Assembly: GCA_016790575.1 (NCBI GenBank)
Contig: JAEUOU010000006.1
Span: 56,737-120,736 of the forward strand
Source: Burkholderiaceae bacterium
GTDB lineage: Bacteria > Pseudomonadota > Gammaproteobacteria > Burkholderiales > Burkholderiaceae_C
DNA length: 64,000 nt
Reading direction: 5' to 3'
Below are positions 27,857 through 31,255 of this stretch, in pieces; positions within the stretch are counted from its first letter, which is position 1; the number at the start of each line of letters is the position of its first letter. The notes beneath the pieces were generated by a model. The model was not told the DNA's origin and made no database searches. It saw nothing but the letters and a program-made list of their open reading frames with translations. A program made the position numbers and the translations under genes.

Positions 27857-28723
27857 ATGTCCCAGCGCCGTCATGCCCTTTTCGCCGTTCTGGCGGTTCC
27901 CGCCCTGTTCATCAGCGGTCTGGCCCATGCCCAGTCCCCTGCCGTGTTCCGGGTGACCACCATCCCCGAAGAAGCTGCCACCGAACAGGTGCGCAAGTTC
28001 ACGCCGCTGGCCGCCTATCTGGAAAAGGCGCTGGGCATGAAGGTCGAGTTCACGCCGGTCAATGACTACCCGGCGGCGGTGGAAGCGCTGGTCAACAAGA
28101 AGGTGGATCTGGTCTGGTTCGGTGGCTTTACCCACGTGCAGGCCAACATCCGCTCGGGCGGCAAGATCGTGCCGCTGGCCCAGCGCGAGGAAGACACCCG
28201 GTTCCAGTCGGTTTTCATCGCCAAGACCGATTCCGGCATCAAGACGCTGGCCGACATGAAGGGCAAGCAGATCAGCTTTGGTTCGCAAAGCAGCACGTCC
28301 GGGCACCTGATGCCGCGCAGCTTCCTGCTGGCGGCCAACATCAACCCGGAAAAGGATTTCCGGCGTATCGCCTACAGTGGCGCGCACGACGCCACCATTG
28401 CGTCGGTGGTCAGCGGCAAGGTCGATGCCGCGGCGCTGGACATCACGGTCTGGCGCAAGTTCGTCACCGAAAACAAGGTGGACACCAAGGCGGTCGATGT
28501 GTTCTACACCACACCGGGCTACTACAACTACAACTGGTCGGTGCATGCCGACATGCCCGCGGCGCAGCAGGCCAAGGTCAAGGCGGCGCTGCTGGCGCTG
28601 GACCCGGCCAAGCCTGACCAGTCCGAAATCCTGCGTCTGAACCGCGCCACCCGTTACATCGAAACCAAGCCCGAAAACTACAAGGGGCTGGAAGCAGCGG
28701 CACGCAGCGCCGGCCTGCTCTGA
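27857..28723 (+). CDS. PhnD-type ABC transporter periplasmic substrate-binding protein
   Basis: Signal peptide MSQRRHALFAVLAVPALFISGLAHA. FRVTTIPEE, DLVWFGGFTHV and SFGSQSSTSGHLMPR are typical of PhnD/PtxB-like oxyanion binders. Confidence 0.8.
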   Translation: MSQRRHALFAVLAVPALFISGLAHAQSPAVFRVTTIPEEAATEQVRKFTPLAAYLEKALGMKVEFTPVNDYPAAVEALVNKKVDLVWFGGFTHVQANIRSGGKIVPLAQREEDTRFQSVFIAKTDSGIKTLADMKGKQISFGSQSSTSGHLMPRSFLLAANINPEKDFRRIAYSGAHDATIASVVSGKVDAAALDITVWRKFVTENKVDTKAVDVFYTTPGYYNYNWSVHADMPAAQQAKVKAALLALDPAKPDQSEILRLNRATRYIETKPENYKGLEAAARSAGLL

Positions 28724-28744
28724 CGCGGGCAGGGCGGGGCGGTC

Positions 28745-29587
28745 TTGAAGCTTGAACTGCAGGCGCTGTCGGCGCGTCACCCGGCGGCCCGGGCGGGTGT
28801 GGCGGCGGCCATTCGTGAGCTCAACCTGACGATCGCGCCGGGGGAGCATGTTGCCGTCATCGGCCCGTCGGGCGCCGGCAAGACCACCCTGTTGCAGGCG
28901 CTGGCCTGCGCGTTGCCGCCGTCGGCCGGCTCGCTGCGTGTGGACGGGCAACTGCCGTGGCAGTTGCCCCGTGGGCAGCTGCAGCGGCTGCGCGGCCGCT
29001 TGTTCCTGGCGCCCCAGGTACCGCCCCTGCCGCCGCGCCAGCGTGTGGTCACGGCGGTGCTGGCCGGCCGCCTGCCGGCCATGGGGCTGTGGCGGAGCGT
29101 GCGGTCACTGTTTTATCCGGACGACATCCCCGCCGCCTACGAGGCGCTGGACCGCTTTGATCTGGGCGACAAACTGTTTGAGCGGGTGGACCGCCTCTCG
29201 GGTGGCGAGCGCCAGCGCGTCGGCCTGGCGCGCGCCCTGATGGGTATGGGGGCCGGGGCGAGTTTGCTGCTGATTGACGAGCCCTTGTCGGCCCTGGACC
29301 CGACGCGGTCCCGCCAGGCCATCGGCGCGCTGGTCGCCGGGGCGGGCGAGCGCGGGGCCACGCTGGTGGCCACATTGCATCAGGTGGATGTGGCGCTGGC
29401 GCATTTCCCGCGCATCATCGGCTTGCGCGACGGACAGATGGCTTTCGACCTGCCCGCCCGGGCGGTCTCCCGCGAGCGGCTGGCGGCGCTGTACGACCAG
29501 TTCGAACACGAGCTGCGCGGCGAGGTTCCGGGGCCGGCGTCCGCCGAAGCCCTGGCCCCGCAGCCGGTGGTCATGCATTGCCGGTAG
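28745..29587 (+). CDS. PhnC-type ABC transporter ATP-binding protein
   Basis: GPSGAGKTTLL (Walker A), [15 protein letters not shown] (signature) and LLLIDEP (Walker B). TTG start. Confidence 0.8.
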   Translation: MKLELQALSARHPAARAGVAAAIRELNLTIAPGEHVAVIGPSGAGKTTLLQALACALPPSAGSLRVDGQLPWQLPRGQLQRLRGRLFLAPQVPPLPPRQRVVTAVLAGRLPAMGLWRSVRSLFYPDDIPAAYEALDRFDLGDKLFERVDRLSGGERQRVGLARALMGMGAGASLLLIDEPLSALDPTRSRQAIGALVAGAGERGATLVATLHQVDVALAHFPRIIGLRDGQMAFDLPARAVSRERLAALYDQFEHELRGEVPGPASAEALAPQPVVMHCR

Positions 29588-29591
29588 GTGG

Positions 29592-30431
29592 GTGGTGGCG
29601 CAACTGAGCCTGCCCCCTGTCCCGCGCCGTGACCCGGCCTGGCACAGCCGCCTTTTTTGGATGCTTGCCATCGGGGTGCTGCTGTGGCCGCTGGGTGTTG
29701 CCACCGAGTTCAAACCCTGGATCCTGCTGGAGCCGGACAACCTGAAGGTGACCGGGCAGTTTCTGGGCAGCTTCTGGCCGCTGGCGCATGACGGCGAGTT
29801 TGTGCGCATGGTGGTTCGCGAGACCTGGCGCACCGTCGCCATGGCCACGGCCGGCGTCACGCTGGCCCTGGTGGTGGCCATCCCGCTGACGCTGATCAAC
29901 ACCCGTGTGTTGTCCATCTCGGCCCTGTCGGGGCGGATGGCGCGGGGGCCGTTCTGGCTGCGCCAGGCGGTGCGCTGGCTGCTGATCGTATTGCGCAGCA
30001 TTCCTGAACTGGTGTGGGCGCTGGTATTTGTCCGCGTGGTGGGTCTGGGTCCGACCGCCGGTGTGCTGGCCATTGCCCTGACCTACGGCGGCATGCTGGG
30101 CAAGGTGTATGGCGAAATCCTGGAAAGCGGTGAAACCCATGCCACGGAAACGCTGTTGCGCAACGGCAGCTCGCGCCTGCAGGCGTTCTTCTACGCGCTG
30201 CTGCCCAGCAGCGCGGCCGAGCTGACCAGTTACACCGTTTACCGCTGGGAATGCGCGATCCGCAGCTCGGTCGTGCTGGGCTTTGTGGGTGCCGGCGGCC
30301 TGGGGCAACAACTGGACAATTCGATGAAGATGTTCAACGGCGGCGAGGTCGCCAGCATGCTGCTGGTCTTCATCGCCCTCGTGGCGTTGGCCGACCGGGT
30401 CAGCGCCTGGCTGCGAAAGGCGCTGGGATGA
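29592..30431 (+). CDS. PhnE-type ABC transporter permease 1
   Basis: Multi-TM protein with LRSIPELVWALVFV (the PhnE EAA-like loop). The GTG start (29592 or 29595), just after the phnC-like stop, is a best guess. Confidence 0.75.
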   Translation: MVAQLSLPPVPRRDPAWHSRLFWMLAIGVLLWPLGVATEFKPWILLEPDNLKVTGQFLGSFWPLAHDGEFVRMVVRETWRTVAMATAGVTLALVVAIPLTLINTRVLSISALSGRMARGPFWLRQAVRWLLIVLRSIPELVWALVFVRVVGLGPTAGVLAIALTYGGMLGKVYGEILESGETHATETLLRNGSSRLQAFFYALLPSSAAELTSYTVYRWECAIRSSVVLGFVGAGGLGQQLDNSMKMFNGGEVASMLLVFIALVALADRVSAWLRKALG

Positions 30432-31255
30432 CCCGGCCGCGCGCTGCCAACGAGCCCTGGCGCCTGCCGCCGCCGCTGTTTGACGCGCGCTGCAAAGCCT
30501 GCTGGTTCACGCTGGCCCTGGTGGTGCTGGTCATCGCCAGCTTCTGGTCGCTGGATCTGCAGTGGGCGCAGTTTCTGTCGCTGCAGGCGGTGCACAGCAT
30601 GGCGCGGTTCGTCGGCGAGTTTTTTCCGCCCGACACCTCGCCGGCGTTTCTGCGCAAGGTGGCCCTGGGCGCCTGGGAGACTCTGGCCATGTCGGCGCTG
30701 GGTACCGGCCTGGCGGCGCTGGCGGGTCTGGCGCTGGCCGTGCCCGCCAGCCGCCTGTACGCGGGCCACACGGCACCAGCCCGGGTGCCGACACGGCTGA
30801 TACTGAACGCCCTGCGCAGTATCCCGGAGCTGGTGTGGGCGGCGTTGCTGCTGATCTCGGCCGGCCTGGGTCCGTTTGCCGGCACCTTGGCACTGGCGCT
30901 GCACACCACCGGCGTGCTGGGGCGGCTGTTCGCCGAAGCGATAGAGAACGCGCCCCCCGGCCCGGCGGCCGCCCTGCGTACCCACGGGGTGGGCAATGGC
31001 CGGGTGTTTCTGTACGCGACCTTGCCGCAGGTACTGCCGCAGCTCATGAGCTACACCCTCTACCGCTGGGAAAACAACATTCGCGCCGCCGCCGTGCTGG
31101 GTGTGGTGGGTGCGGGGGGACTGGGCCAGCTGCTGGCCTTCCACATGGGGCTGTTTCACATGAGCAAGACCGCGACCATCCTCGGGGCCATGTTGCTGAT
31201 GGTGGCCGTGGTCGATGCCGCCAGTCATGGCGCGCGTCGCTGGCTCACCCGCTGA
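30428..31255 (+). CDS. PhnE-type ABC transporter permease 2
   Basis: LRSIPELVWAALLL and multiple TM segments. ATGA overlap with permease 1. Confidence 0.8.
   Translation: MTRPRAANEPWRLPPPLFDARCKACWFTLALVVLVIASFWSLDLQWAQFLSLQAVHSMARFVGEFFPPDTSPAFLRKVALGAWETLAMSALGTGLAALAGLALAVPASRLYAGHTAPARVPTRLILNALRSIPELVWAALLLISAGLGPFAGTLALALHTTGVLGRLFAEAIENAPPGPAAALRTHGVGNGRVFLYATLPQVLPQLMSYTLYRWENNIRAAAVLGVVGAGGLGQLLAFHMGLFHMSKTATILGAMLLMVAVVDAASHGARRWLTR

Follow-up and report, generated by a model that had tools for sequence, protein, structure and literature searches.

The window analysed here, a stretch of 64,000 nucleotides of contig JAEUOU010000006.1 from the Burkholderiaceae bacterium assembly GCA_016790575.1, carries on its + strand, at 27857-31255, four genes encoding a binding protein, an ATP-binding cassette (ABC) ATPase and two permeases, embedded among genes of selenoneine and ergothioneine synthesis. 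The importer that they form probably takes up a selenium oxyanion for the selenophosphate synthetase SelD, a reading to which a probability of about 0.7 is given. In its narrower form, for which the odds are about even, the proposal is that of a type I ABC importer having selenite/hydrogenselenite as the main substrate and feeding a single SelD, where the nature of the substrate is deduced from sequence and gene context. A preliminary description of the locus had put forward a selenium-oxyanion importer as a candidate, and the family match of the binding protein, the co-occurrence of that family with SelD and the conserved gene order in relatives all argue for it.

The idea itself has already been predicted elsewhere, namely in NCBI annotation, by Kayrouz et al. 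2022 (bioRxiv 10.1101/2022.04.13.486033), who reported ‘a putative selenate transporter’ near many sen clusters, a subset of which also contain egtD, and in a 2026 JACS paper (PMC13674229, Table 1), where ABC_peri_selen and PhnE are found beside 3.1% of all sulfoxide/selenoxide synthase genes. The locus is a real, intact and standard member of a known annotated family in its usual context. Its interest lies in the fact that selenium is known to enter bacteria only via borrowed sulfate, phosphate or acetate carriers (PMC8981825), and that the papers found name no proven dedicated high-affinity selenium importer, for which the TIGR04553 family to which the binding protein belongs is the leading genomic candidate. 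Such an importer, if real, would account for the ability of selenoneine producers to acquire selenium at the nanomolar levels of the environment; the selenium-ligand question also bears on the role of PhnD1, a transporter that is abundant and constitutively expressed in marine picocyanobacteria.

Architecture and family of the importer

The gene products have the make-up of a type I ABC importer (coordinates in table 1): an exported class II/cluster F binding protein, two multi-span BPD_transp_1 permeases, each with several hydrophobic segments, and an ATPase with a Walker A motif (GPSGAGKT at residue 40), an LSGGQ-type motif (LSGGERQR at 151) and a Walker B motif (LLLIDE at 174). The sole hydrophobic segment of the binding-protein N-terminus, at residues 7-25, is followed by AHA/QS, and this region is a predicted Sec-type signal peptide. 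Among the models for Phn components, TIGR02315 (PhnC) gives 179.1 bits with the ATPase, under the cut-off of 266.1, and TIGR01097 (PhnE), with a cut-off of 216.7, gives 195.5 bits with permease 1, under it, and 256.9 bits with permease 2, over it. Domain matches and motifs thus uphold the earlier claim of a complete importer with an exported binding protein, diverging from egtD and located between egtD and egtB; a 213-bp spacer separates it from egtD, and an SMR pump and a methyltransferase also intervene before egtB.

The binding protein scores 357.8 bits with TIGR04553 (‘putative selenate ABC transporter substrate-binding protein’; cut-off 250), residues 30-288 being aligned on model positions 1-265. 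The PhnD equivalog model TIGR03431 gives 168.1 bits, under its cut-off of 261.1, and by this score the protein is not an equivalog of PhnD. The model type of TIGR04553 is ‘hypothetical equivalog’ and its substrate is a prediction (NCBIfam); NCBI puts the TIGR04553 name on proteins 86-90% identical to that of the window in Hydrogenophaga, Aquabacterium and other Comamonadaceae.

The AlphaFold2 (AF2) model of the binding protein (pLDDT 91.5) appears open, matching apo PtxB with a higher TM-score than the liganded forms, and its top Foldseek matches are 7S6G, 5LQ8 and 5LQ5, then PtxB, ArrX, HtxB, PhnD and AioX. By sequence, the nearest solved structures are 7S6G (PhnD1 of Synechococcus MITS9220, E 3e-54, about 42% identity) and then 5LQ5 (PhnD1 of Prochlorococcus MIT9301). 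PhnD1 of MITS9220 and MIT9301 also pass the TIGR04553 cut-off, with 335.8 and 301.6 bits, respectively, when scored on aligned sequences. In a maximum-likelihood tree, a 39-row clade (SH-aLRT 96) is made up of the window's subclade, PhnD1 and a selD/selU/sen-linked core, to which PhnD1 is sister (support 95).

L130-L135 and a 44-row clade of the same tree represent a large sister group, whose pocket reads DYTLSTSHN[DN]Y and whose TIGR04553 scores, 150-240 bits, fall short of the cut-off. No PhnC or PhnE homologues were detected next to its genes by tblastn, and SelD is less frequent in these genomes.

Linkage to selenium genes

Among 401 evenly drawn genomes of the class, with TIGR04553 counted above its cut-off, SelD is present in 12 of the 13 genomes that bear the family and in 63 of 387 others (Fisher p = 9.7e-9). 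SenB is found in eight and SelU in nine of the 13, at least one of the two being present in 12, and the TIGR04553 profile follows SelD, not arsenic genes.

Gene order was compared in 80 Comamonadaceae loci forming the set of close relatives. Sen genes stand beside the importer in 47 of the 51 loci having at least 6 kb of upstream sequence, and the ATPase and both permeases follow the binding protein in 55 of the 59 with enough downstream sequence. Within the cluster, conservation is highest for the importer proteins: median identity is 84% in the binding protein and 80-83% in the permeases, compared with 49% in SenA and 60% in SenB. These loci are mutually related and, therefore, weigh little more than one observation.

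In distant lineages, the importer stands in further, independent arrangements with selenium genes. A locus of G319 (L120) has the binding protein, the ATPase and a fused permease, followed by a fusion of the TIGR03169 oxidoreductase with SelD; L118 and L119 combine a sen cluster with fused SelD and the importer (binding protein); and the order in L121 (G297) is selU, binding protein, ATPase, permease. In G316, which belongs to the window's own family and is without SenB, a single strand (L117, 9458-16832) encodes an FdnH-like formate dehydrogenase, fdhE, selA, selB, the binding protein, the ATPase and the permeases. In L035 (6392-10852), an apparent exception from another Comamonadaceae genome, three genes, for GcvH-like, DsrE-like and nitroreductase proteins, separate selB from the binding-protein gene. 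Finally, L129 (G048:C5:65700-83631), at about 8687-13510, has the order ATPase, PtxB-like binding protein, permease, selD (550 bits) and selU/mnmH (470 bits), with selD-selU in the place usually occupied by ptxD. Its binding protein, from a different clade, is 58% identical to Pseudomonas stutzeri PtxB, has the same pocket as PtxB (DYSASTSHSQY) and reaches only 151 bits with TIGR04553; here, it seems, a phosphite-type importer was recruited to selenium genes a second time and independently.

Relatives beside selU or selAB occur in four genomes without SenB (G316, G297, G228 and G050). Since the importer is found next to selenoneine, selenouridine and selenocysteine genes, it tracks selenium use as such rather than selenoneine alone, which favours a supply of inorganic selenium and disfavours the transport of hercynine or ergothioneine. 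In the genome of the window there is one SelD match overall, selU is present and selA was looked for and not found, so that the importer would feed two pathways. Of the ‘dedicated’ supply to SelD that the preliminary description had suggested, the link to selenium therefore stands, whereas an exclusive tie to selenoneine does not, given selU here and the relatives with selU or selA-selB.

Two further features of the close relatives may be recorded. In 14 of the 51 Comamonadaceae loci, the SelD by senB is only 31-36% identical to the SenC of the window and lies about 2.2 kb further out (divergent-SelD loci: L021, L026, L033, L037-L040, L051, L061, L062, L069, L073, L076, L079 and L084), which is consistent with replacement of plain SelD by the oxidoreductase::SelD fusion within one bacterial family. 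In L044 (Hydrogenophaga intermedia MER 62, 10001-13496), a binding protein 90% identical to that of the window is found without sen genes or PhnC/PhnE partners, and is followed by a divergent LysR-HTH/PBP_like regulator and by a different single permease and ATPase.

The ligand pocket

The pocket was read by mapping the ligand contacts of 7S6G (Y44, T65, D11, S123-S124-T125-S126, H156, N174, D203 and the capping Y204) by alignment onto the binding protein, where the corresponding residues are E38, Y71, T92, S145-S146-T147-S148, H177, D195, N224 and Y225. Eight of 11 positions (Y71, T92, S145-S148, H177 and the cap Y225) are as in PhnD1; the three changes are D11 to E38, N174 to D195 and D203 to N224, and PtxB has S/Q in place of the D/N at 195/224.

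The E38/D195/N224 set is invariant in all 80 Comamonadaceae relatives, whereas G316 (the nearest outgroup), the distant selenium-linked members and PhnD1 have D/N/D at the same three positions. The D195/N224 change resembles a swap of polarity within an interdomain pair. The equivalent residue of HtxB, Asp206, pairs with Arg178, and D206N alone abolishes binding; the Asp203/Asn224 position is, thus, critical. An Asp-to-Asn change at this position is also reported in some picocyanobacteria (Shah et al.). An Asn at the Asp203 position was considered as a marker of selenium linkage and ruled out, as distant sen- and selD-linked members and PhnD1 keep the Asp. The swap is limited to the window's Comamonadaceae clade, Asn arising also in the unrelated sister clade, and is, on the alignment, a feature of the clade.

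Characterised relatives

The systems closest to the importer are those linked to sen genes by Kayrouz et al. 2022, which share the TIGR04553 family and the same context (senABC and egtD in a Comamonadaceae genome) and differ in nothing essential. Within the family, the window's clade has two separate permease genes and distant members one fused permease of 485-528 aa. The PhnD1-PhnC1-PhnE1 systems (7S6G; 5LQ5/5LQ8; Shah et al. 2023, Bisson et al. 2017) share the family model, the clade and the Y, T, S-STS loop, H and capping Y of the pocket and, like the importer described here, have no phosphite- or phosphonate-utilisation genes alongside; they differ in the D11/N174/D203 set discussed above, in the single fused permease and in having tesA as a neighbour. 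PtxABC of P. stutzeri (PtxB, 5O2J) has the same fold and oxyanion loop, with about 31% identity between PtxB and the binding protein, and its canonical operon ends with ptxD, whereas no dehydrogenase flanks the importer here. Escherichia coli PhnCDE (PhnD, 3P7I) has the same ABC architecture and Pfam families, but PhnD is only about 21% identical, and its larger pocket provides two acidic acceptors for aminoalkylphosphonates. AioX (6EU7) and ArrX (6XL2), with the same fold and about 21-25% identity, bind arsenite/arsenate and signal to a histidine kinase, unlike the protein of the window, which sits with ABC permeases; with them, the superfamily provides examples of adaptation to metalloid oxyanions.

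The PhnD1 proteins of MITS9220 and MIT9301 bind phosphite, phosphate and methylphosphonate with Kd values of 0.05-4, 7-180 and 17-109 µM, respectively. Non-phosphorus cocktails, sulfur sources among them, gave no stabilisation in the PhnD1 ligand screen, and sulfate was excluded from the 7S6G crystal site; selenium compounds are absent from the PhnD1 papers and from the screen. The host strains are without ptxD and C-P lyase and do not grow on phosphite or methylphosphonate, which the authors call a paradox, and the phnD1 gene of Prochlorococcus is unresponsive to phosphorus limitation; PhnD1 is interpreted by its authors as a phosphate transporter. Prochlorococcus and Synechococcus also have ybbB and a SelD with an NADH-dehydrogenase-like N-terminal extension (Romero et al. 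2005), which is the same fusion as that found beside the importer in proteobacteria. The statement that no member of the family had been proven biochemically, made when the locus was first described, is right for selenium; two members of the family, the PhnD1 proteins, have nevertheless been crystallised and bind phosphite tightly, an observation that covers half of what the preliminary description would have taken as a refutation.

Which substrate?

Selenite, with three oxygens and a lone pair, has the same shape as phosphite. It is favoured over selenate because it is the shape analogue of a ligand that PhnD1 binds, whereas selenate is an analogue of sulfate, which did not bind PhnD1; because the pocket, in which the capping Tyr225 is retained, prefers three oxygens and a small apical group under the capping tyrosine; because a PtxB-type system, with a phosphite-specific pocket, has been joined to selD-selU at L129; and because the fused or linked reductase is of the disulfide-reductase type, there being no sulfate-activation enzymes as partners. 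The preference of characterised relatives for three-oxygen phosphite over four-oxygen phosphate, 10- to 1000-fold, likewise tells against selenate. An importer of selenate (SeO4 2-), which would then be reduced via the sulfate-assimilation route or by another reductase before reaching SelD, is on these grounds unlikely, but has arguments of its own. In oxic water, dissolved selenium is mainly selenate, and in the window's clade the acidic hydrogen-bond acceptor beside the ligand is replaced by Asn224; by the phosphate-versus-sulfate rule reportedly due to Luecke and Quiocho, a fully ionised tetrahedral anion is no longer repelled once an acidic acceptor is lost. Moreover, selenate is the word used both in the TIGR04553 name and by Kayrouz et al. 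On the side of selenite, this anion enters bacteria via phosphate-type carriers (PMC8981825), and selenoneine was obtained by feeding selenite (Kayrouz et al., bioRxiv 10.1101/2022.04.13.486033).

A somewhat smaller chance still is left to an importer of phosphorus oxyanions, i.e. of phosphite or, with medium affinity, of phosphate, as in PhnD1, the selenium neighbours being incidental or reflecting an indirect need. The pocket identity with 7S6G and the sole biochemistry of the TIGR04553 family, which is the binding of phosphite, phosphate and methylphosphonate, fit such a role, as does the fact that the best Foldseek matches are all binders of phosphorus or arsenic oxyanions. Against it stand the co-occurrence of the family with SelD far above background, its operonic arrangement with selD, selU, selAB or sen genes in unrelated lineages, and the inability of PhnD1 hosts to grow on phosphite or methylphosphonate with a gene that is not regulated by phosphorus. 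The genome of the window also argues against a phosphorus role: it contains no PhnJ (C-P lyase, PF06007) across its 3.45 Mb, 98% complete, and there is no dehydrogenase among the genes flanking the importer (egtD, SMR, methyltransferase, egtB and TetR), ptxD not having been searched genome-wide. The earlier remark that no phosphorus genes are nearby therefore holds genome-wide for C-P lyase and among the neighbours for phosphite dehydrogenase.

Far less probable is the uptake of an organic pathway metabolite (histidine, hercynine, ergothioneine or selenoneine) or of another metalloid such as arsenic, to which the position between egtD and egtB, the quaternary-cation SMR pump next door, the fold shared with AioX and ArrX and an arsenosugar operon 11 kb away might point. 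The pocket residues form a small capped oxyanion site, the ergothioneine importers known so far (EgtUV) belong to the OpuA type (PMC10903977) and, as noted, the family profile does not follow arsenic genes; hercynine and ergothioneine are ruled out as substrates by the relatives beside selU or selAB in SenB-less genomes, where there is no hercynine chemistry. Equally remote is a main function of the binding protein as a sensor partner, as for AioX with AioS/AioR. One relative (L080, 5413-10840), 81% identical and with the same pocket, does come immediately behind genes for a hybrid histidine kinase and a LuxR-type response regulator and is unaccompanied by ABC genes, a layout which by analogy to AioX/AioS/AioR suggests a selenium-oxyanion sensor. 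It is the only relative with this arrangement; here and in the large majority of relatives the ATPase and two permeases follow, with start/stop coupling.

The preference for selenite has to be set against several points. Selenite is mostly HSeO3- at neutral pH, whereas phosphite is a dianion, and the Se-O bond is about 0.2 Å longer than the P-O bond. No selenium ligand is reported for any TIGR04553 member in the literature found, the measured ligands being those of PhnD1 only; gene linkage cannot separate selenite from selenate, and the database name says selenate. Four of the close relatives have no sen genes nearby, and one of the 13 TIGR04553 genomes, a fragmented assembly with 7% contamination, has no SelD. 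Finally, the Asp203 that contacts the ligand in PhnD1 is Asn in the window's clade, so that the PhnD1 affinities may not carry over to it.

In a selenite importer, the exported binding protein would close on a small XO3-type anion held by Y71, H177 and the loop S146-T147-S148, the fourth position being covered by Y225, and, once loaded, would dock on the heterodimer of the two PhnE-like permeases, translocation being powered by a dimer of the PhnC-like ATPase. In the cytoplasm, Se(IV) would be converted to selenide via thiols, perhaps with the help of the TIGR03169 oxidoreductase encoded 7 kb downstream, and SelD/SenC would then make the selenophosphate used by SenB and SenA for selenoneine and by SelU for tRNA selenouridine.

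A wider and more tentative proposal, leaning towards doubtful, is that the whole clade, i.e. the sen-, selD-, selU- and selAB-linked TIGR04553 systems together with the near-universal picocyanobacterial PhnD1-C1-E1, is the dedicated high-affinity selenite importer of bacteria. If this were so, the pocket of PhnD1 would have been shaped for isosteric selenite, its sub-micromolar affinity for phosphite being a by-product, and the PtxB-type recruitment at L129 would be a second, convergent case; the fixed D195/N224 swap of the Comamonadaceae clade could then mark a change in the protonation state or in the selenium species bound.

Organization of the locus and neighbouring genes

Table 1. Features of the importer locus and of the selenoneine/ergothioneine genes around it (positions in the window).
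Feature	Coordinates	Strand	Evidence
SelD/SenC selenophosphate synthetase	23073-24251	-	NF002098 541.9 bits
SenB selenosugar synthase	24149-25159	-	TIGR04348 429.7 bits
SenA selenoneine synthase	25158-26426	+	NF041186 493.3 bits
EgtD histidine methyltransferase, divergent from importer	26645-27643	-	TIGR03438 350.9 bits
Divergent intergenic spacer egtD/binding-protein gene, 213 bp; presumed promoter and operator region	27644-27856	.	sequence read
Periplasmic substrate-binding protein, TIGR04553 family, 288 aa	27857-28723	+	PF12974 231.8 bits
Predicted signal peptide, residues 1-25, MSQRRHALFAVLAVPALFISGLAHA/QS	27857-27931	+	AXA cleavage motif read in translation
ABC ATPase, PhnC-like, 280 aa	28745-29587	+	PF00005 86.7 bits
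Permease 1, PhnE-like, 279 aa	29592-30431	+	PF00528
Permease 2, PhnE-like, 275 aa	30428-31255	+	PF00528
SMR pump	31283-31636	+	
Class I methyltransferase	31661-32290	+	
EgtB	about 32287-33603	+	
Stand-alone pyridine-nucleotide-disulfide oxidoreductase	37802-38941	-	TIGR03169 ‘Nterm_to_SelD’ 355.2 bits, cut-off 310; PF07992

The importer genes are tightly packed, with 21 bp between those of the binding protein and the ATPase and with the ATG of permease 2 overlapping the stop codon of permease 1 as ATGA. For permease 1, the listed open reading frame (ORF) starts at 29274; a GTG at 29592, 4 bases past the ATPase stop, is most plausibly the start. As the importer, the SMR gene, the methyltransferase gene and egtB lie on one strand with successive gaps of 27, 24 and -4 bp, they probably form one transcript. 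Scans for promoters and terminators inside the operon gave nothing above chance (terminators being scanned over 28723-33603), and a scan of the spacer with the sigma-70 consensus gave no match. Two exact copies of GCGGCATTTC, 50 bp apart, are found at 27757-27816 in the spacer and may represent an operator.

On the far side of egtD from the importer lie senA, senB and senC, 3.6 kb separating the binding-protein gene from selD/senC, the product of which is the presumed consumer of the imported selenium. At other importer-linked loci, the TIGR03169 oxidoreductase domain is fused to SelD, whereas in the window it is encoded on its own; it is a candidate for the selenium reduction step. Since the match begins at residue 100 of the 468-aa ORF (37802-39208), the true start of the protein is internal to this ORF. 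The class I methyltransferase has weak matches (35-40 bits) to models of the arsenite methyltransferase type and of selenoprotein methyltransferases, and could methylate Se or S on products.

The genome consists of 39 contigs and is about 98% complete; its relatives place it within the Comamonadaceae, near Hydrogenophaga and Rhodoferax. At the site of a second PF12974 paralogue (L002), the ORFs picked gave no family match. The first 22 kb of the window have a G+C content of 45-58%, against 65-73% in the remainder, and a strongly negative AT skew at 12-18 kb; positions 1-22000 may represent an island of foreign origin or a stretch of different composition at the border of the selenium locus.

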